A DNA stretch of 47,173 bases. Origin: Patescibacteria group bacterium (GTDB lineage Bacteria > Patescibacteriota > Patescibacteriia > PEXW01). The position numbers were made by a program, and so were the translations under genes. Below are positions 1,922 through 44,876 of the stretch, piece after piece. Numbering within the stretch: position 1 is the stretch's first letter; each line of letters starts with the position of its first letter. The notes below the pieces were generated by a model, which had not been told where the DNA came from, did no database searches, and saw only the letters and a list, made by a program, of their open reading frames with translations. The stretch is from the NCBI GenBank assembly GCA_041665345.1, contig JBAYJA010000004.1:114122-161294 (forward strand), given 5' to 3'.

Positions 1922-2866
1922 ATGGCCGTCCCCATAAAAAAACTCCTTACTGACTTCCTGGAGTATTTGGAAGTGGAGAAGAATGTCTCACCGCTTACCG
2001 TGCGGAACTACGGCTTCTACCTCAAACGATTTGTAGATTCAGCCAAGCTGGAAAAACCCACCGATGTCACTATCGAAAAAGTGCGGCAGTTCCGGCTTTT
2101 CCTCAACCGCCAGCTGAACCACCAAAAAGAAGTATTGAAAGCCAGTACTCGGAATTATCACTTGATTGCGCTGCGCGCATTTTTGAAGTACCTGGCCAAA
2201 CGGGATGTCCCCAGTCTGGCTGCAGAGAAAGTGGAGCTTGCCAAGCAGACCGAGCGGCAGGTGAGCTTTTTGGAAGGGACGGACTTGGAGCGATTCTTGG
2301 AAGCACCGTTGAAATTGGAACAGCCGGATTTGCTGAAGGCCCGGGACAAGGCGATTCTGGAACTCCTCTTCTCCACTGGCTTGCGCGTTTCAGAACTGGC
2401 GAATCTAAAGAAGGATGGGATCAATTTGGAGAAAGACGAGTTTACGGTTCGCGGCAAAGGCGGGAAGCTCCGCATTGTCTTCCTCTCCCACAATGCCCGG
2501 CACTGGGTAGGCGCATATTTGAAAGCCCGGAATGATGACGAGCCGTGGATTTTCCTACGGCATGACCGCGCCATCAAACGCTCCGGCGCAGAACACAAAC
2601 CCTTGACCTCCCGATCCATTCAACGGTTGGTGCAGCACTACGCCACCGTGGCCGGCATTACCAAACGAATTACCCCGCACACGCTCCGGCACTCCTACGC
2701 CACCGACCTGCTCATGAATGGGGCGGACATTCGGAGTGTGCAATCCATGCTGGGACACGCCAGCATTACGACCACGCAAATTTACACCCACGTCACCAAC
2801 CAGCAGCTCCGCGAAGTGTACCAGGCCTACCACGGCCGGCGCCGGAAGAAAGACTCGTCCAAATAA
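1922..2866 (+). CDS. tyrosine site-specific recombinase, XerC/XerD-like
   Basis: C-terminal HTLRHSYATDLLMNGADIRSVQSMLGHASITTTQIYTHV (R-H-R-Y catalytic signature region). N-terminal SAM-like LTDFLEYLEVEKNVSPLTVRNY. Start chosen at MAVPIKK (1922) rather than 1886. Confidence 0.85.
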   Translation: MAVPIKKLLTDFLEYLEVEKNVSPLTVRNYGFYLKRFVDSAKLEKPTDVTIEKVRQFRLFLNRQLNHQKEVLKASTRNYHLIALRAFLKYLAKRDVPSLAAEKVELAKQTERQVSFLEGTDLERFLEAPLKLEQPDLLKARDKAILELLFSTGLRVSELANLKKDGINLEKDEFTVRGKGGKLRIVFLSHNARHWVGAYLKARNDDEPWIFLRHDRAIKRSGAEHKPLTSRSIQRLVQHYATVAGITKRITPHTLRHSYATDLLMNGADIRSVQSMLGHASITTTQIYTHVTNQQLREVYQAYHGRRRKKDSSK

Positions 2867-2873
2867 CTCCCTT

Positions 2874-3977
2874 ATGAAATACCTCATGATCGTGTTCATC
2901 GTTGCTGCCACTGTCATTATCATTGCCGGACATGGGCTGCTCTTCGTCTCGTGGGTGAAGTTTTTTCACATCACCTCGCACAGTCTCAAACTCTGGCTGG
3001 GTATTGCGTTGGGCATACTGAGCATCAGCTTCTTGGTGACCATCCTATTGGTACACGCTGTGGAGACGCAGTACACGGACGCACTGTACGCCGGTGCCTC
3101 GGCCTGGCTGGGTTTTGTGTGGTACGCCGCGTTAGCTGTTGCACTCACCTGGGCGCTCATTGGTTTGGCAAAATTGGCGCAGGTGAACCTGCCCATTAGT
3201 ACAATCTCCGCCATACTCCTGGTCATCGCTTTGGGCGTGAGTGTGTACGGCGTCTGGAATGCCTTTCACCCAGTGGTCACGCGCATAACCGTTCGTTTGC
3301 CCAACCTGCCCGAAACATGGAAAGGCCGGGTGGCTGTGCAACTCTCCGACATTCACCTGGGACCCATTCACCGTAAGAGCTTTTTGGATGACGTGCTCGC
3401 CCTGACGAAAAAAGAAAACCCCGACATTGTTTTTGTGACTGGTGATCTATTTGATGGCGGCGGCGCAGATATAGCAAACCTCCCCCTTGCCTTCAATACC
3501 CTTACCCCACCGCTTGGTACGTTCTTCAATACCGGGAACCACGAACAGTACCTGGGCTTGGAAAAATCCTTGGCTGCCATTGCAAAAACCAACTTGCGCG
3601 TGTTGCGAAACGAAATTGTGGATGCGGATGGAATGCAAATTGCCGGGCTGGATTACGCCGACACGCCGGATCGTACGGCAATCCAGAGTGTCCTGGCCAA
3701 GCGGGATACCACCGCCCCACTCATTGCCCTGTACCACGTCCCAATACTGCGTGACCTCTTCCAGGAAAATGGCGTGAACCTGCAACTCTCTGGCCATACG
3801 CACAAAGGCCAGCTCTGGCCCTTTGGGATTATTACCAAATGGGTGTACCAGGGGAAGGACATTGGCTTGCACACCGATGGCGAGTACAACATTTACACTT
3901 CAACCGGTGTTGGCACCTGGGGCCCGCCCATGCGCACGGGTAATCGACCAGAAATTGTAGTGATAAGATTTGAGTAG
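2874..3977 (+). CDS. membrane-anchored metallophosphoesterase (calcineurin-like)
   Basis: Several N-terminal TM helices, then SDIHLG, GDLFDGG, GNHE and GHTH motifs. Start moved to the ATG at 2874 (MKYLMIV), 5 nt after the recombinase stop. Confidence 0.8.
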   Translation: MKYLMIVFIVAATVIIIAGHGLLFVSWVKFFHITSHSLKLWLGIALGILSISFLVTILLVHAVETQYTDALYAGASAWLGFVWYAALAVALTWALIGLAKLAQVNLPISTISAILLVIALGVSVYGVWNAFHPVVTRITVRLPNLPETWKGRVAVQLSDIHLGPIHRKSFLDDVLALTKKENPDIVFVTGDLFDGGGADIANLPLAFNTLTPPLGTFFNTGNHEQYLGLEKSLAAIAKTNLRVLRNEIVDADGMQIAGLDYADTPDRTAIQSVLAKRDTTAPLIALYHVPILRDLFQENGVNLQLSGHTHKGQLWPFGIITKWVYQGKDIGLHTDGEYNIYTSTGVGTWGPPMRTGNRPEIVVIRFE

Positions 3978-3980
3978 TGG

Positions 3981-4009
3981 TTGACGTGCAGAGCAATCCA
4001 ACGTAGTAT
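3981..4009 (+). promoter_or_regulatory. sigma70-like promoter driving the tRNA-Arg / tRNA-derived array
   Basis: TTGACG (3981-3986), 17 nt, TAGTAT (4004-4009). The first tRNA-like unit starts at 4019. Confidence 0.55.
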
Positions 4010-4018
4010 GAGCAACTT

Positions 4019-4398
4019 GCCCCGGTAGTTCAACCCCGACGTTTGCGCAGCGCAAAGTCGGGGCTCCGACGCCAAAGGCCGTCGGAGCGGATAGAACCGT
4101 GGACTTCCCCGCCCGACTCGCCTGACGCCCTTGTAGTTTCCGGCGGAGCCGGATCCCCCGCCTCCCGAAGCCGTGCGGCGGGCAGGCGCTTCTGCGGGAC
4201 AATAGAGAAACCACGGACTTCCCCGCTTGCCTTGTTCGCCCCTGTAGCTCAACGGATCAGAGCAAGGGACTTCTAAGCCCGAGATGCACGTTCGATTCGT
4301 GCCAGGGGCACCAAGGCAAGCGGGGCAGGTAAGCCGGTTGTTGGGTTTCCGGCGTAGCCGGACCCCGCTACGCGGGGCAATTCCCTCCCGGGGCACCA
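4019..4398 (+). ncRNA. GC-rich structured array of tRNA-derived units (~110-nt period) enclosing one intact tRNA
   Basis: tRNA 5' starts recur at 4019 (GCCCCGGTAGTTCAAC), 4127 (GCCCTTGTAGTTTC) and 4238 (GCCCCTGTAGCTCAAC). The spacer ATAGA..GGACTTCCCCGC recurs at 4091-4112 and 4202-4226. Positions 4019-4025 pair perfectly with 4388-4394, followed by ACCA. No credible ORF. Confidence 0.6.
4238..4313 (+). tRNA. tRNA-Arg (anticodon TCT), CCA encoded
   Basis: 7-bp acceptor GCCCCTG/CAGGGGC. D arm GCTC-AACGGATCA-GAGC. Anticodon loop CTTCTAA. T arm GCACG-TTCGATT-CGTGC. Discriminator A plus CCA. The anticodon stem has only 3 G-C pairs, flanked by two A-G mismatches. Confidence 0.8.
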
Positions 4399-4413
4399 CC
4401 TATTCTGGACGAG

Positions 4414-4431
4414 TTCTGAAGGTGTACCTAA
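4414..4431 (+). repeat. left direct repeat bounding the AT-richer cassette
   Basis: TTCTGAAGGTGTACCTAA. Its partner at 7174-7192 is TTCTGAAAGGTATACCTAA (one indel, one substitution). Confidence 0.75.
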
Positions 4432-4471
4432 TATTGTATGTTTGTCTAAAGACCTAACACTAAATAGAAAA

Positions 4472-5542
4472 ATGGGAATTCAAGCACATAAAAAAACTCT
4501 CCCTTTGTTGACCGGGAATCTAGACGGCCTCAATCACTCGAAGTTACCGATACAAAATTGGGAATTTGTAGAAGCACGGTCATCTATCCGCGCTGCGCTT
4601 CGGTTCTTATTAGGAAAGCAACGATCGGACGGATCATGGCGCGATTTTAACGTCTTATTTGGTGAATCTTCTTCTTGGGTCACTGCATGTGTTCTCATCT
4701 CGCTTAGCGACACTCCTTCGTATGTACCTCGGGCTGACTTAGCCGGCGTTAAGGCCAAAGCACTTCAATTTCTTCGTTCGAGCTGCAAACCAACAGGCGG
4801 TTGGGGCTATAATGAAAATCCGATTGTTCCAGATGATTGTGATTCTACTGCCCATGCGATTCTCGCGTTCCGAATGAATGATCAGATGGTACCAAATCGT
4901 AACATAAGACGACTTGAGGAATTTGAGATCGAACCCGGTCATTTTGTCACATTCCTTAATCGAAAGGAAGGCCATTCTTGGGGTTTAACACATTCCGAAG
5001 TTGGGGCTATTGCAACAATCGCATTAGGTGGGTCTTCACGAGTTAGGGGACTGGCTGAGAAACTTGAATATGATCTGGACAGATTTGGCTCCTGGCCCAG
5101 TTTTTGGTGGCGCAAACCACTATATTCGACATATGCATGTTCTTGGTTCCTTTCGCATTTTGGAATTTGTTGTAGGTCTTTATCAGATCGTAGCGAGCAG
5201 TTGGCAGATACGCTGAGCAGTAGATCACCCTTGGAAGCAGCATTCTCAGGGCTTGCGGCGTATCAACTTGGCCATCACCAATTCGTGAAGAAAGCCTTTC
5301 GATACCTTATACGCAATCAGAAATCGGACGGATCTTGGGAATCATCAAGGCTCTTGCGTAATACCGATTCAGATCAAACTTCGAATTGGCTAAACACCGG
5401 TAAGGTTCGAGGCAAGTTGTATCACGATCAAAATAAAGTTTTTACAACATCTACAATCACACGATTTCTTATGACTGTAATCACCGAAGTACAACCATGT
5501 GACTATTCGATGTCGGCCTTTGAAGCTCATAATGTTCTATAA
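4472..5542 (+). CDS. prenyltransferase / squalene-cyclase-repeat protein (class II terpene cyclase-like, single alpha/alpha barrel)
   Basis: QW-type repeats QRSDGSW and QKSDGSW. GGWGYN followed by PDDCDSTA in the position of the GGW...DxDDTA motif. The ATG at 4472 is preferred over the TTG at 4442. Confidence 0.7.
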   Translation: MGIQAHKKTLPLLTGNLDGLNHSKLPIQNWEFVEARSSIRAALRFLLGKQRSDGSWRDFNVLFGESSSWVTACVLISLSDTPSYVPRADLAGVKAKALQFLRSSCKPTGGWGYNENPIVPDDCDSTAHAILAFRMNDQMVPNRNIRRLEEFEIEPGHFVTFLNRKEGHSWGLTHSEVGAIATIALGGSSRVRGLAEKLEYDLDRFGSWPSFWWRKPLYSTYACSWFLSHFGICCRSLSDRSEQLADTLSSRSPLEAAFSGLAAYQLGHHQFVKKAFRYLIRNQKSDGSWESSRLLRNTDSDQTSNWLNTGKVRGKLYHDQNKVFTTSTITRFLMTVITEVQPCDYSMSAFEAHNVL

Positions 5543-5553
5543 ACTTCTATAGT

Positions 5554-6588
5554 TCATTGATAGCCTGCAGCAATGAACTCATTCTGATCCCAGCAAGCTC
5601 GCTGCCGAATCCACTCGCAAAAAGCCCTGAGTTGCTCGCGTGTGCTGCCCGGCGAGAATTCAGCAAGCAGCCTCAAAGTCAACTCGAATTGTTTTTCAGC
5701 TCTCTGAAGCGCTGTTACCTGAACTTTCAATTCTCTCAATAATTGAGCAATCTGCCCTCCCGTCTTGGAGTCACACGTCTTTCCAATCGCGCCCAAAACT
5801 AGACTTCGCTCTGACGTGCTCGCTGAATCCAAAGCCACAGCGATCGGCAGGCTGAGATTTACCACATAGGAACTAGGCGCTTTTCGTCGCACCGAACTTT
5901 CCCCAGATTCATCGTATACATCATTATACATCTGATACGTCTTGCCAATTTCATTACCCAATGTCGCATAGCGAGTTACTGAATCACTATCGAAGCGCTG
6001 TAGACGAGCTGCGGCTATAAAGACAAAACGAAATAACGCGGATGTCTTCTGAAGTACCACTGACTCATAGAGTTCGACATATGATCCTCGAGGGGAAACA
6101 TACCCAACGTCGGCAAGTTCTCCAGTTGACATGCGGCGTATGGCGTGTCCGAACTCTGCGGCTAGATCTAATTTGTGGCTCTTATCTACTTTGTGCAGCC
6201 GAAGTATCGACTCTCCCAACAAGAGGGGAATGAGCAAGTTCGTTGCTTTGTTACCGTGCTGTTGGTGAAAGGTCTGATGCCCACGTCGGATGACATCCTC
6301 GTCAATTAAATCATCGAGAATGATTGATCCACGATGACACAATTCGATCACGGTCGCCAATTCTCCTGCTATCAGGTCATTTGACACGGTGTTCTTCTCA
6401 AGAAGCAGCATAAAGGTAAGTGGGCGCAATCTCCTGCCGGGGAAAAGAGCATCTCGCAGCAGTCCACGAAGCACAGAATCGCTTGTCGCCATAACGAAGT
6501 GATTCAAATTCTCATCAACTAACGATTGCACCTGACGGCGCGTCGAACGAGATAGAAACGAATCTATAGTGAGCTGCGGTTGGGACAT
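5554..6588 (-). CDS. polyprenyl (isoprenyl) diphosphate synthase-like protein
   Basis: GRRLRP, first Asp-rich motif ILDDLIDEDVIRRG, KTSALF, and second motif GKTYQMYNDVYD (N replaces the first Asp). Convergent with the cyclase-like gene, with an 11-nt gap. Confidence 0.8.
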   Translation of the reverse strand: MSQPQLTIDSFLSRSTRRQVQSLVDENLNHFVMATSDSVLRGLLRDALFPGRRLRPLTFMLLLEKNTVSNDLIAGELATVIELCHRGSIILDDLIDEDVIRRGHQTFHQQHGNKATNLLIPLLLGESILRLHKVDKSHKLDLAAEFGHAIRRMSTGELADVGYVSPRGSYVELYESVVLQKTSALFRFVFIAAARLQRFDSDSVTRYATLGNEIGKTYQMYNDVYDESGESSVRRKAPSSYVVNLSLPIAVALDSASTSERSLVLGAIGKTCDSKTGGQIAQLLRELKVQVTALQRAEKQFELTLRLLAEFSPGSTREQLRAFCEWIRQRACWDQNEFIAAGYQ

Positions 6589-6842
6589 ATTACAATACTA
6601 CCCCTTTGTCGTTAGCTGGCACAAGGACAAACCCCATCTGCATGTGGCTTCAGTAACTTACTGTGCCACAACCGCTCAGACAAGTGTACAGAGCCTCTAC
6701 GCTCCTTCCCAATTTTCCTTCCCCCAGAAACACCAGCTTCTTTATTTTTTTGCAGAAGCTCTTTGAACGTGAGTATGCCAGGATTATTCTGGTAGAAGGT
6801 TCAAACGTCGTGTATCAGGGCGCACCACCACAATAAAGCCTC

Positions 6843-6871
6843 TTGACGATATATCGTATATGATATATAGT
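6843..6871 (+). promoter_or_regulatory. promoter with overlapping palindrome (possible XRE operator)
   Basis: TTGACG (6843-6848), 17 nt, TATAGT (6866-6871). The perfect 10-bp palindrome CGATATATCG (6847-6856) overlaps the -35/spacer. Confidence 0.45.
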
Positions 6872-6892
6872 AGTTGTTGCGTAGACTATTTT

Positions 6893-7159
6893 ATGAATAA
6901 GAATAACTATCTCTACAAATTGCAAAAAAATAAGGAGTATAAGAAACTTCTTAAAGAAGAGAAGGATCTACTTGATATTGCTTTGCAGATTTCCCAAACA
7001 CGAAGGAAGCGTAAAATTACTCAGGTGCAATTGGCAAAAAGAGCTGGCATGCCCCAAAGTCAAATTGCAAGAATTGAAAGTGGGAATCATAACGTGACTA
7101 TCGGGACTCTAAATAGGGTTGCGGGTGCATTGAACTTACGAGTGGTTGTTGGAGAGTAG
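6893..7159 (+). CDS. XRE-family helix-turn-helix transcriptional regulator (88 aa)
   Basis: ITQVQLAKRAGMPQSQIARIESGNHNVTIGTLNRVAGAL is a classic HTH_3/Cro-C1 motif. Start moved to the ATG at 6893, because 6860 lies inside the promoter. Confidence 0.8.
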   Translation: MNKNNYLYKLQKNKEYKKLLKEEKDLLDIALQISQTRRKRKITQVQLAKRAGMPQSQIARIESGNHNVTIGTLNRVAGALNLRVVVGE

Positions 7160-7173
7160 TACGCTGGCATTCA

Positions 7174-7192
7174 TTCTGAAAGGTATACCTAA
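7174..7192 (+). repeat. right direct repeat bounding the AT-richer cassette
   Basis: TTCTGAAAGGTATACCTAA, 15 nt after the XRE stop. Partner of 4414-4431. Confidence 0.75.
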
Positions 7193-7371
7193 ACTTCCTC
7201 TACTTACTTTGAGGAATTTTACGTATTCACAGATTGAACGCAAAAAAACAAAGGTATGTTATGATTTCCAAAAATCAGCTTTTTTAGTCAGCCTTGACAA
7301 CGTTACCAATTTGGTATAAGTTCGTATTTGGACATACACAGACACTCACATTACAACCCAAGGAGGAAATT

Positions 7372-7662
7372 ATGTGCGGTGGATATCCTTACCCGCACCC
7401 GGCAGGACACGTCATTGCGCAGCTGGTATCTGGGCAAGAAGTGAAAGTTGCCAAAGGCTTTGGCTTTCCGAAAAAGCAAGAAGATTCGACCTGCATTATT
7501 GCACGCGTCGTTGGCTACTCTGCGCTTTGCGCTGATGGCACGCTGCTAGGTTGCATGGATGGCGCAGGCGTCACACCCACAGACGTCATCCACCAAACTT
7601 TTGAACTGAGCGATGCAGCCAAACAGAAAATCGCCGAGGTTGACGCAGAAAAACAAACCTAA
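7372..7662 (+). CDS. hypothetical small Cys-containing protein (96 aa)
   Basis: AAGGAGG 5 nt before the ATG at 7372. Possible promoter TTGACA (7294-7299) with TGgTATAAG (7312-7320). A terminator follows. Confidence 0.6.
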   Translation: MCGGYPYPHPAGHVIAQLVSGQEVKVAKGFGFPKKQEDSTCIIARVVGYSALCADGTLLGCMDGAGVTPTDVIHQTFELSDAAKQKIAEVDAEKQT

Positions 7663-7675
7663 AAATGTTACGTTA

Positions 7676-7702
7676 ACCGAGCGTCCTCTGCGCTCGGTTT
7701 TT
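7676..7702 (+). terminator. rho-independent terminator
   Basis: ACCGAGCG / CGCTCGGT stem followed by a T-run. Confidence 0.7.
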
Positions 7703-7711
7703 CATTATTCT

Positions 7712-7720
7712 TGCTATACT
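7712..7720 (+). promoter_or_regulatory. extended -10 element TGCTATACT
   Basis: TGnTATACT lies 26 nt upstream of the Nudix ATG. The same 9-mer recurs at 34968-34976 and (minus strand) at 40908-40916. Confidence 0.4.
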
Positions 7721-7746
7721 ACCAAAAGTTCGCTTTTCTTTGAGTT

Positions 7747-8253
7747 ATGCCCATCAACACTGATCCTCACATTCACCAGAATGTGATGTGCGCAAATGTG
7801 TACATCCGAAAAGGTGATAAGTATCTACTGCTCAAGCGCTCACCCAAGAAGCGGTTTTTGCCAAATCTCATTAATCCCATTGGCGGAAAAATTGAGCCCA
7901 ACGAAAACCCTTACCAAGCCGCACTCCGCGAAGTGCAAGAAGAGGCCGGGATTACGCTGAAGAACCTTCGGTTAGAGGCGGTGATTCTGGAAATTCAACC
8001 CTACAAGGATAAGCCGCACAACTGGCTGGTCTTCCATTTTTCTGCGGATTGGGACGCTGGTGAGCTGCAGCCCACAGAAGAAGGCGAGTTCATGTGGTTC
8101 ACCGCCGCTGAGATTCCACAGCAACCTCTTTTCCCGTCCGTGCGGGAAATTATTCACCATATCCTGAACCCAAAGGATGGCACGGTTTTCGCCACGATAT
8201 CCTATGATGAGAAAGGGAAGGTGGTGAACGTAGAAAAACAACTTTGCCTATGA
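7747..8253 (+). CDS. Nudix hydrolase
   Basis: Nudix box GGKIEPNENPYQAALREVQEEAGI. Confidence 0.85.
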   Translation: MPINTDPHIHQNVMCANVYIRKGDKYLLLKRSPKKRFLPNLINPIGGKIEPNENPYQAALREVQEEAGITLKNLRLEAVILEIQPYKDKPHNWLVFHFSADWDAGELQPTEEGEFMWFTAAEIPQQPLFPSVREIIHHILNPKDGTVFATISYDEKGKVVNVEKQLCL

Positions 8254-9904: not shown

Positions 9905-10044
9905 TTCTTACGGGGTCCCCACGAATGTGGCGCGGAGTCCTGCCGCAGGACGAGCACGCGTTCGTGGGGCAAAGCGAGGCTTCGCGCGACGGGCGGAGCG
10001 GAGACGTAGCAACGTCTACGCGCAGCTCTGAGCGCGAAACGAGC
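9905..10044. other. GC-rich multi-hairpin block directly 3' of tRNA-Lys
   Basis: Nested stems CCCCACGAA...TTCGTGGGG, GTCCTGC-C-GCAGGAC and AGACGT-AGCA-ACGTCT. No credible ORF and no T-run. Confidence 0.45.
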
Positions 10045-10120
10045 TGGTGCGTCCAGAGGGAATCGAACCCCCAACCTTGGGCTTAAGAGGCCCCTGCTCT
10101 GCCAGTTGAGCTATGGACGC
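10045..10120 (-). tRNA. tRNA-Lys (anticodon CTT), CCA encoded
   Basis: The reverse complement reads GCGTCCA-TA-GCTC..GAGC, anticodon loop CTCTTAA, T arm GGGGG-TTCGATT-CCCTC, then TGGACGC-A-CCA. Confidence 0.9.
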
Positions 10121-44690: not shown

Positions 44691-44789
44691 ACACCAAAAA
44701 ACTCTACCTTTTTTTGGCAGCCGTCCTCGCCCTTCGAGTCCCACATACTTTACTCCAATGACGCACCTAATGCCTGAAAAAGAGTTTTT

Positions 44790-44814
44790 GATTGGTGCAC
44801 GGGGGTGGCCAATG
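44790..44814. repeat. 25-nt repeat copy overlapping the tRNA-His 3' end
   Basis: Covers the last 11 nt of the tRNA (44804-44814) plus 14 nt of trailer. Confidence 0.85.
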
Positions 44815-44876
44815 GGACTCGAACCCACAACCACTGGTACCACAAACCAGTGCTCTACCATTGAGCTATGGCCACC
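44804..44876 (-). tRNA. tRNA-His (anticodon GTG) with encoded G-1
   Basis: The reverse complement reads G-GTGGCCA-TA-GCTC..GAGC, anticodon arm CTGGT-TTGTGGT-ACCAG, T arm GTGGG-TTCGAGT-CCCAT, then TGGCCAC-C. The 3' flank reads CCC, so CCA is not fully encoded. Confidence 0.9.

Follow-up and report, generated by a model that had tools for sequence, protein, structure and literature searches.

The transfer RNA (tRNA) locus analysed here occupies positions 4019–4398 of a 47,173-nt stretch of Patescibacteria DNA, hereafter the window. Judged from its sequence, it is one tRNA-Arg(UCU) gene split in the D loop, the anticodon loop and the T loop, which carries within its anticodon loop a second, intact tRNA-Arg(UCU) gene; the architecture is nested, and neither tandem nor periodic. 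We favour the explanation, to which we assign a probability of roughly 0.58, that a resident tRNA-Arg(UCU) gene was invaded repeatedly, at the DNA level, by short, GC-rich palindromic cassettes that insert at a specific site and supply a tRNA in place of the one they disrupt. The nesting itself, a precise insertion point common to the aligned junctions, complementary arms, the absence of target duplication and the differences in occupancy from genome to genome are all evident from the sequence comparisons given below.

One tRNA-Arg gene split in three loops encloses another

By removing three stretches from the locus, we recovered a recognizable tRNA gene. The inserts of this outer gene lie in the D loop (4034–4087, 54 nt), between C35 and U36 of the anticodon loop (4108–4329, 222 nt) and in the T loop (4348–4377, 30 nt), and no credible open reading frame (ORF) was found in any of them (30–222 nt). 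Joining 4019–4033, 4088–4107, 4330–4347 and 4378–4398 gave the 74-nt sequence GCCCCGGTAGTTCAACGGATAGAACCGTGGACTTCTAAGCCGGTTGTTGGGTTCAATTCCCTCCCGGGGCACCA, which ARAGORN called as a tRNA-Arg(tct) ending in CCA and which is 69–78% identical to other tRNA-Arg(tct) genes of Patescibacteria, the range found for most pairs of intact genes. The native unit 4019–4398 was detected as a tRNA neither by ARAGORN, even with the intron option, nor by Rfam. The individual arms are restored in the same way. First, once the 54 nt between GTTCAA and CGGATAGAAC are skipped, the outer D arm reads GTTCAACGGATAGAAC, one base off the GTTCAATGGATAGAAC of the plain ortholog in L002 (L numbers designate the contigs that we compared). 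Second, after the 108-nt cassette that ends the anticodon-loop insert, the interrupted gene picks up again with TAAGCCGG. Third, deletion of the T-loop insert restores the T loop TTCAATT.

The first seven nucleotides of the locus, GCCCCGG (4019–4025), are perfectly complementary to CCGGGGC (4388–4394), directly followed by ACCA. A preliminary description of this locus had pointed out this pairing, and the two strands turn out to be the two ends of one interrupted tRNA-Arg gene. The same description had seen a compensatory change from T6-A67 to G6-C67 between the outer and the inner acceptor stem; we do not retain this, since these are merely two homologous tRNA-Arg genes, each with a matched acceptor stem. 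The paired ends and the ACCA also led us to consider a transfer-messenger RNA (tmRNA). This candidate was rejected: the tmRNA search of ARAGORN was negative, Rfam gave no tmRNA at E ≤ 10, and the third acceptor pair is C-G and not G3.U70.

Run with ARAGORN and Rfam, the region 3950–4450 yielded a single tRNA, an intact tRNA-Arg(tct) at 4238–4313 that matches Rfam RF00005 over 4238–4310 with 61 bits (E = 7e-13, threshold 29 bits), in line with the earlier statement that only the third unit is intact. Besides this inner tRNA no Rfam family reached its threshold in 3950–4450, and at E ≤ 10 there was only low-scoring microRNA noise, with neither group I nor group II introns among the matches. The intact gene is enclosed by a perfect helix between 4221–4234 and 4312–4325, which had been described as 11 bp long; the helix is there, and its actual length is 14 bp, which no other short-range perfect inverted repeat of the window reaches. 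Short-range inverted 11-mers number 12 in the real window against a mean of 1.66 in shuffled versions, and 4 of these 12 come from the 14-bp helix.

The locus had been presented at first as a periodic array of ~110-nt units, on account of tRNA 5' starts at 4019, 4127 and 4238. These starts are real (14/16 and 10/12 identity to the intact tRNA), and their spacing of 108 and 111 nt is what speaks for the decay of a tandem array, made up of three or four tRNA-Arg genes and GC-rich spacers between them, an origin that we regard as very improbable. Tandem Repeats Finder, at a minimum score of 30, found 0 tandem repeats. Moreover, the two truncated units end at one and the same nucleotide, as do those in other genomes; the 3' remainder follows after the intact tRNA, in the order of a nest; and the nest of L066, described below, is an unambiguous onion. 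The apparent period of ~110 nt arises because the nesting produces it as a by-product, and neither the periodic array nor its decay from a tandem array survives.

Shorter repeats within the locus fit the same layout. The motif ATAGA..GGACTTCCCCGC, taken earlier for a spacer, does recur; it is no spacer and consists of the 3' side of the D arm, the 5' strand of the anticodon stem, four loop bases and then the start of an insert. Repeat pairs were found at 4095–4112 and 4209–4226 (89% identity) and at 4136–4157 and 4345–4366 (91% identity). The latter pair is the recurring hairpin of the preliminary description, and its pattern TTTCCGGCGNAGCCGGA occurs in the 47-kb window at 4137 and 4346 only. 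Coordinates are collected in Table 1, where alpha and beta denote two types of tRNA-Arg that recur in the comparisons.

Table 1. Features of the interrupted tRNA-Arg locus, in window coordinates
Feature	Start	End	Strand	Details
Predicted promoter	3981	4009	+	TTGACG 3981–3986, 17-nt spacer, TAGTAT 4004–4009
Outer tRNA, piece 1	4019	4033	+	acceptor 5' strand GCCCCGG, U8 A9, D-stem 5' strand GTTC, AA
D-loop insert	4034	4087	+	GC-rich hairpins hpA 4034–4063 (CCCCGAC..GTCGGGG) and hpB 4064–4087 (CTCCGACG..CGTCGGAG)
Outer tRNA, piece 2	4088	4107	+	D-loop 3' part CGGATA, D-stem 3' strand GAAC, C26, anticodon-stem 5' strand GTGGA, loop CTTC (32–35)
Beta flank (left flank, first anticodon-loop insert)	4108	4126	+	19 nt, CCCGCCCGACTCGCCTGAC
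Beta, second, degenerate tRNA-Arg 5' fragment	4127	4221	+	GCCCTTG TA GTTT, 61-nt GC-rich hairpin insert 4140–4200, AATAGAGAAAC C ACGGA CTTC
Inner cassette	4222	4329	+	108 nt; left arm 4221–4234 (C4221 shared with recipient), TTC, tRNA, right arm 4312–4325, CAGG
Alpha, the only intact gene, tRNA-Arg(UCU)	4238	4313	+	encoded CCA; ARAGORN, Rfam RF00005
Interrupted tRNA resumes	4330	4347	+	loop TAA (36–38), GCCGG anticodon-stem 3' strand, variable TTGT, T-stem 5' strand and first two T-loop bases TGGG TT
T-loop insert	4348	4377	+	hairpins CCGGC-GTA-GCCGG (4349–4361) and CCCCGC-TAC-GCGGGG (4363–4377)
Outer tRNA 3' end	4378	4398	+	T-loop CAATT, T-stem 3' strand CCCTC, acceptor CCGGGGC, A73, CCA

The anticodon-loop insert holds a broken fragment and a cassette

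The 222-nt insert of the anticodon loop is itself composite. Its beta flank and the five bases that follow are identical at 24 of 24 positions in L043, where they stand behind a different recipient, the 5' half of alpha. The beta fragment is broken after C35, like the outer gene, and no matching acceptor 3' strand for it was found in 4300–4450. As an alternative, we considered the beta fragment together with the shared 3' half as one tRNA; the joined sequence gets no tRNA call. In the resumed stretch 4330–4347, TAAGCCGGTT is the same as the uninterrupted beta sequence of L043. The right arm of the inner cassette overlaps the CA of the tRNA's CCA. As for the hairpins of the D-loop insert, hpB is identical in L043 at 24 of 24 positions, and hpA carries there a compensatory change from a T-A to a C-G pair.

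An A31.G39 mismatch is present in the anticodon stems of several tRNA-Arg genes (window 4264–4280, L043 4189–4205 and L066 3997–4013), and the intact tRNA of the window also has A27.G43. These mismatches seem to be a feature of the lineage rather than signs of decay.

The same break point is used in other Patescibacteria

We aligned six filled junctions from four genomes (two from the window, two from L043, one from L045 and one from L066) with seven uninterrupted genes; L043 comes from sample SRR22387771, and L045 is contig CAYHJX010000038.1 of a metagenome-assembled genome (MAG). First, the break follows CTT(C/T) at all six filled junctions and every insert starts with CCC(C)GC(C/T), while the six recipient anticodon stems are all different. 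Second, the uninterrupted genes read CTTC/TAAG at the insertion point in seven of seven cases (the slash marks the point of insertion), and the two sides of the window junction read CTTC/CCCGC on the left and GGGGCAGG/TAAG on the right. Third, no shared core, direct repeat or target-site duplication was found at the sides of the inserts among the aligned junctions. As junction motifs we take CTTC/CCCGCY, seen in the window and in the three other contigs, and CTTGCCCCG...CGGGGTGAAG.

The occupancy of the site differs between genomes. Alpha, intact in the window, is broken in L043 by the beta flank; the two alpha 5' halves agree at 34 of 36 positions. Beta shows the reverse: the window has it in degenerate form, and L043 has it without interruption up to the end of its contig. 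The homologous array of L043 starts after the same recombinase-phosphoesterase gene pair as in the window, and the contig ends inside the array. At orthologous loci, sister genomes have a plain tRNA-Arg(tct) gene, namely L002 (a 74-nt gene), L063-65 and L080.

The clearest second case is L066, where a three-level nest, built through the D loop, lies downstream of a histidyl-tRNA synthetase gene. Its order is O5'-arm-M5'-arm-intact tRNA-arm'-M3'-arm'-O3'. On the 5' side, O5' TCTCCCTGTAGCTCAAC is followed by TTG-CCCCGTTAGACA-TAT, M5' CCCCCTGTAGTTCAGC, TTG-CCCCGTTAGATA-A and the intact tRNA (3900–3971); on the 3' side come TATCTAACGGGG-TGAAG, M3', TGTCTAACGGGG-TGAAG and O3'. The arms measure 12–13 bp, one arm pair has GACA/TGTC where the other has GATA/TATC, a compensatory difference, and the fold of the nest has z = -6.15. 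Once its insert is deleted, the middle gene M, otherwise near-perfect, is called as tRNA-Arg(tct). The outermost gene is additionally broken after CTTC, by an insert that starts with CCCGCCTGC and whose right end lies beyond the end of the contig.

These junctions bear on a more conventional explanation, that of classical att-site scars, by which integrase-driven islands would have integrated repeatedly at tRNA-Arg, replaced part of the gene and later been lost. Several features agree with it: tRNA-Arg(UCU) is a variable spot, because different small islands follow it in L080 and in L066 and none in L063; a tyrosine-recombinase gene (1886–2866) lies 1.1 kb upstream of the locus; and the 3' end of the intact tRNA (4295–4313) appears again 85 nt downstream, at 4380–4398, with 79% identity. 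However, tyrosine and serine recombinases leave a shared core or direct repeat, and no insert has one at its two sides. Furthermore, the fragments are nested with complementary arms and are not displaced halves beside an island, the flanks are identical across genomes, which random loss of islands would not produce, and L002 has the recombinase gene in the same syntenic position beside a plain tRNA. We therefore judge att-site scars decidedly unlikely. Among the three origins proposed in the preliminary description, scars of repeated integration at a tRNA nevertheless came closest; what has to be corrected is the geometry, which is that of an onion and not of a tandem or periodic array.

Searches for further relatives returned little. 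A pattern scan of the genome collection gave one true relative (L045) and four chance matches, and scans of viral contigs gave chance matches only. By blastn against phage and plasmid databases, the tRNA part alone matched. ARAGORN found no tRNA-Arg in 32 scanned loci out of 38 metagenomic loci with distant metallophosphoesterase homologs (34–42% identity), and no array accompanies the closer homologs P0002 (L042), P0005 (L061) and P0008 (L062). Contigs of relatives stop inside the arrays (L043:4209, L045:1), and many contigs encoding close homologs of the L045 histidyl-tRNA synthetase are just ~1.4–1.5 kb long. Assemblers probably break at the repeated tRNA pieces. Because assemblies tend to break at such loci, the arrays are likely to be under-represented in MAGs.

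The locus is a genuine, strongly folded sequence behind a predicted promoter

Since the contigs of relatives often end inside their arrays (L043 and L045), assemblers clearly struggle there, and this is what could be said for a chance resemblance or an assembly chimera. The probability of either is, in our opinion, virtually negligible. L049, an independent Logan assembly, is 100% identical to the window across 3890–4460; because the two agree base for base, the sequence of the locus is real and no assembly artefact. In addition, typical assembly k-mers exceed the shared repeats in length, four unrelated samples show this architecture, and the 380 nt fold far more stably than expected.

The fold calculation that the preliminary description had suggested gave -197 kcal/mol for the 380 nt, with z = -5.85 and none of 100 shuffled sequences equally stable. 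The minimum-free-energy structure is closed by pairing of the two ends, and within it the inner tRNA keeps its acceptor, D and T arms. The promoter noted earlier, a sigma-70-like match TTGACG-17-TAGTAT, is indeed present and is the sole match in 3800–4600 (0.4 expected); its predicted transcription start lies ~2–3 nt ahead of the outer tRNA 5' end, and L043 has a counterpart at the equivalent place, TTGACA-17-TACAGT.

On the opposite strand, an antisense ORF of 168 aa (3893–4399, minus strand) spans the whole array and is called as protein P0121 in a public assembly. A 142-aa antisense ORF across the array, compared with 5.8 billion proteins, matched only the same sequence from another assembly. 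Because its sole homolog is itself, the 168-aa ORF is a spurious gene call over structured RNA.

Proposed repeated invasion by cassettes that carry a replacement tRNA

Under the explanation that we favour, the cassettes would be mobile and site-specific. An insertion would destroy an essential, single-copy tRNA gene, so that only cassettes with a replacement tRNA of the same anticodon would persist, by the same logic as in phage tRNA-dependent lysogeny (PMC10865867). Each new tRNA copy would then offer the next target, and successive rounds would build the onion. The ancestral promoter would transcribe the whole stretch, and ribonuclease P together with 3' processing would free the innermost tRNA; the 14-bp arm helix, stacked under the 7-bp acceptor stem over about two helical turns, may act as a processing stem. 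The outer fragments would be co-transcribed remnants that are non-functional as tRNAs, with only the innermost copy functional, and by pairing with each other they may be kept from mispairing with the functional tRNA.

Several observations weigh against this explanation or complicate it. First, the window and L043 share 90% identity over the outer shell (acceptor 5' strand, hpA, hpB and CGGATA), against 39%, near saturation, at third codon positions in the neighbouring gene and 57% in the intergenic/promoter region. A neutral relic should have decayed, so this conservation calls for a shell that is either under selection or recently spread by horizontal transfer. It is possible that the shell is selected as a leader/trailer structure, as a quarantine against mispairing with the functional tRNA or as a processed RNA of its own; it is also possible that it spreads horizontally along with the cassettes. 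Second, as the beta fragment has no 3' partner, a secondary deletion or rearrangement must be assumed. Moreover, L043 reads CGGATA/AATAGAAAC where the window holds ~107 extra nt, which makes the order of the insertion events uncertain. Third, the innermost tRNA of L066 is 89–92% identical to the residents of sister genomes and the middle one ~73%, that is, foreign. A simple picture in which a foreign cassette brings a foreign tRNA does not predict such a native-like innermost copy, which suggests gene conversion or exchange of the cargo tRNA. Fourth, no transposase, homing endonuclease or dedicated recombinase was identified for the cassettes. Finally, the window is the only complete anticodon-loop example; the D-loop example, L066, is nearly complete, and L043 and L045 are cut by contig ends.

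The conservation of the shell, set against that of the neighbouring third codon positions, is also the first argument for placing the inserts at the RNA level, as intervening sequences or as parts of a composite functional RNA. Once ribonuclease P and 3' processing had freed the inner tRNA, the outer halves would be held together by the arm helix and the acceptor stem and then be ligated or used as split halves, or the shell would be a stable structured RNA that stems from the leader and trailer. Compensatory pairs in hpA and in the L066 arms fit such a role, and so do the perfect 7 bp of the outer acceptor stem with its encoded CCA and the near-perfect middle tRNA of L066. GC-rich helices join split tRNA halves in Nanoarchaeum, and the geometry of the locus recalls them. 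However, the insert-free outer tRNA is weak: its T stem has only 3 bp, and one pair of its anticodon stem is G.G. Furthermore, the inserts in the D and T loops take the place of the tRNA elbow contacts, and the second-level fragment has no 3' half. Inspection by eye of the window and L066 junctions revealed no bulge-helix-bulge motif (two 3-nt bulges and a 4-bp helix): the window junction consists of a 3-bp helix, a 1-nt bulge and the uninterrupted 14-bp helix, and that of L066 of CTT/AAG, a G/TG internal loop and a 12-bp helix. Rfam gave no group I core at E ≤ 10 in window 3950–4450 or at E ≤ 1 in L066 3700–5740. We know of no protein-based tRNA-splicing pathway in bacteria, and no tRNA splicing endonuclease or ligase was found among the 25 of 48 long window ORFs scanned against Pfam. 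Taking these points together, we consider an RNA-level role unlikely. A long structured transcript with a tRNA module, the third origin put forward at first, is right in no more than a trivial respect, namely that one transcript probably covers all the pieces; the outer RNA might have a function.

A wider proposal, which we make only tentatively, is that Patescibacteria carry an undescribed class of tRNA-targeting mini-elements or intervening sequences. These would be hairpins whose arms read CCCCG...CGGGG and whose targets are the D, anticodon and T loops of tRNA-Arg(UCU) genes, into which they would home, some of them with a spare tRNA at the tip, and the interrupted outer tRNAs might survive in split or re-joined form, as a bacterial counterpart of archaeal disrupted tRNA genes.

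Comparison with known systems

A close parallel to repeated invasion by replacement-carrying cassettes is the tRNA-dependent lysogeny of actinobacteriophages, in which the element inserts into a host tRNA gene that is essential and leaves it disrupted (Guerrero-Bustamante and Hatfull 2024, PMC10865867). Likewise, the outer tRNA of the window is split and the cassette supplies a tRNA-Arg(tct). However, lysogeny of this kind involves a whole prophage, a tyrosine integrase and a common core of ~10 bp, whereas the cassette here is ~108 nt long, geneless and without core duplication. It also differs in that its tRNA stands between inverted-repeat arms and that cassettes nest inside each other's tRNA. 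No phage genes were found at the locus.

Archaeal disrupted tRNA genes comprise multiple-intron, split and permuted genes, and intron transposition occurs in Thermoproteales. As at our locus, inserts are found in the D, anticodon and T loops, GC-rich helices join the halves and the inserts appear mobile. In contrast, these genes need a bulge-helix-bulge motif and a splicing endonuclease, and the host of our locus is bacterial. We are aware of no intron in archaea with a further tRNA inside it that has the same anticodon. Reviews of disrupted archaeal tRNA genes are PMC4090602 and PMC3978253.

In bacteria, PMC3984707 places group I introns in tRNA anticodon loops. Our inserts share with them the position in the anticodon loop of a bacterial tRNA gene and a final G. 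Group I introns have U at the 5' splice site; here, C is the last exon base at 5 of 6 junctions. The 108-nt cassette is also too small for the P3-P9 catalytic core of a group I intron.

Short, GC-rich, non-coding and hairpin-forming sequences that may sit inside functional genes are also known as repetitive extragenic palindromic sequences and bacterial interspersed mosaic elements (REP/BIME), miniature inverted-repeat transposable elements (MITEs) and Rickettsia palindromic elements; these are dispersed in many copies and carry no tRNA. The cassettes resemble MITE/REP elements in being small and non-coding, with inverted-repeat arms of 14 bp in the window and 12–13 bp in L066. They differ in that they have no target-site duplication and target tRNA loops, and within the 47-kb window their motifs are confined to the tRNA-Arg locus.

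When an island integrates at a tRNA gene, a segment of the tRNA is found as a direct repeat on either side of it, together with an integrase gene. Williams is said to have defined, in 2002, sublocation classes of such integration, the anticodon loop being a preferred one. The likeness lies in the tRNA gene as target and in the variable islands that adjoin tRNA-Arg in relatives; unlike such islands, the inserts have neither core repeats nor an integrase, and the recombinase gene upstream also stands next to a plain tRNA in L002.

To our knowledge, disrupted tRNA genes (split, permuted or multi-intron) have been treated as a speciality of archaea and algae, and in bacterial tRNAs only self-splicing group I introns are known. 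Our literature search found no nested tRNA genes and no tRNA intervening sequences other than group I described in the candidate phyla radiation, an absence that does not prove that none has been published. The locus would combine two known themes, mobile DNA at tRNA genes and disrupted tRNA genes, and its nesting in bacteria appears unreported as far as we found. A tRNA-Arg nest up to three deep, in several lineages of Patescibacteria, with a precise site and complementary arms, points to a new way for selfish DNA to occupy an essential gene while carrying its replacement. In practical terms, tRNA finders report the inner gene alone and gene callers annotate spurious proteins over the shell, one of them public, and assemblies tend to break at these loci, so that the phenomenon is probably under-counted. 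If the shells prove to be processed RNAs, tRNA splicing or split tRNAs in bacteria would be open to direct test.

Genomic context and other features of the window

The gene directly upstream of the locus encodes a metallophosphoesterase whose best named homologs come from Patescibacteria, and it is preceded by the tyrosine-recombinase gene, which is of the Xer type. The order recombinase, phosphoesterase, tRNA-Arg(tct) is kept in L002 and L043. The longest phosphoesterase ORF (2718–3977) overlaps the 3' end of the recombinase gene by ~150 nt; the real start is probably near 2874, because the public gene call P0001 (367 aa) starts later.

Downstream of the locus (4400–8000), the GC content is ~45% just past the array, and the region encodes a squalene-hopene-cyclase-like repeat protein, a polyprenyl synthetase and a helix-turn-helix protein. 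The genes downstream of the tRNA in L002 differ from those of the window, and window 4400–8000 may be an island adjoining the tRNA. In L080, a small island (4386–5500) lies between the plain tRNA-Arg and the genes that adjoin the tRNA in L063; it contains two short ORFs, one of them with DUF2283, and a membrane-protein ORF. In L066, a 57-nt sequence, GCTCACCACAAGAAGAAC(C/T)CGGAGAAAAACATC..., is present twice downstream of the nest (4165–4221 and 5084–5140), each time ahead of a small AT-rich ORF, and the two copies look like cassette-like units of an island.

Two further tRNA genes of the window have sequences of possible interest beside them. About 70 nt downstream of tRNA-His (44801–44876, minus strand), positions 44733–44743 repeat, in inverted orientation and without mismatch, 11 nt of the T arm, the segment TTCGAGTCCCA (44813–44823). 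This may be due to chance, since a shuffled window contains on average 1.66 short-range inverted 11-mers. Directly 3' of tRNA-Lys(ctt) (10045–10120), on the minus strand, positions 9907–10045 form a hairpin-rich stretch of ~140 nt with 70–74% GC (CCCCACGAA...TTCGTGGGG). Few short stretches of the window exceed 68% GC, and of these, the tRNA-Arg array apart, this tail is the largest; the tRNA with its tail folds with z = -2.3. Possible identities of the tail are a related hairpin insertion, an RNA derived from the trailer and a terminator.

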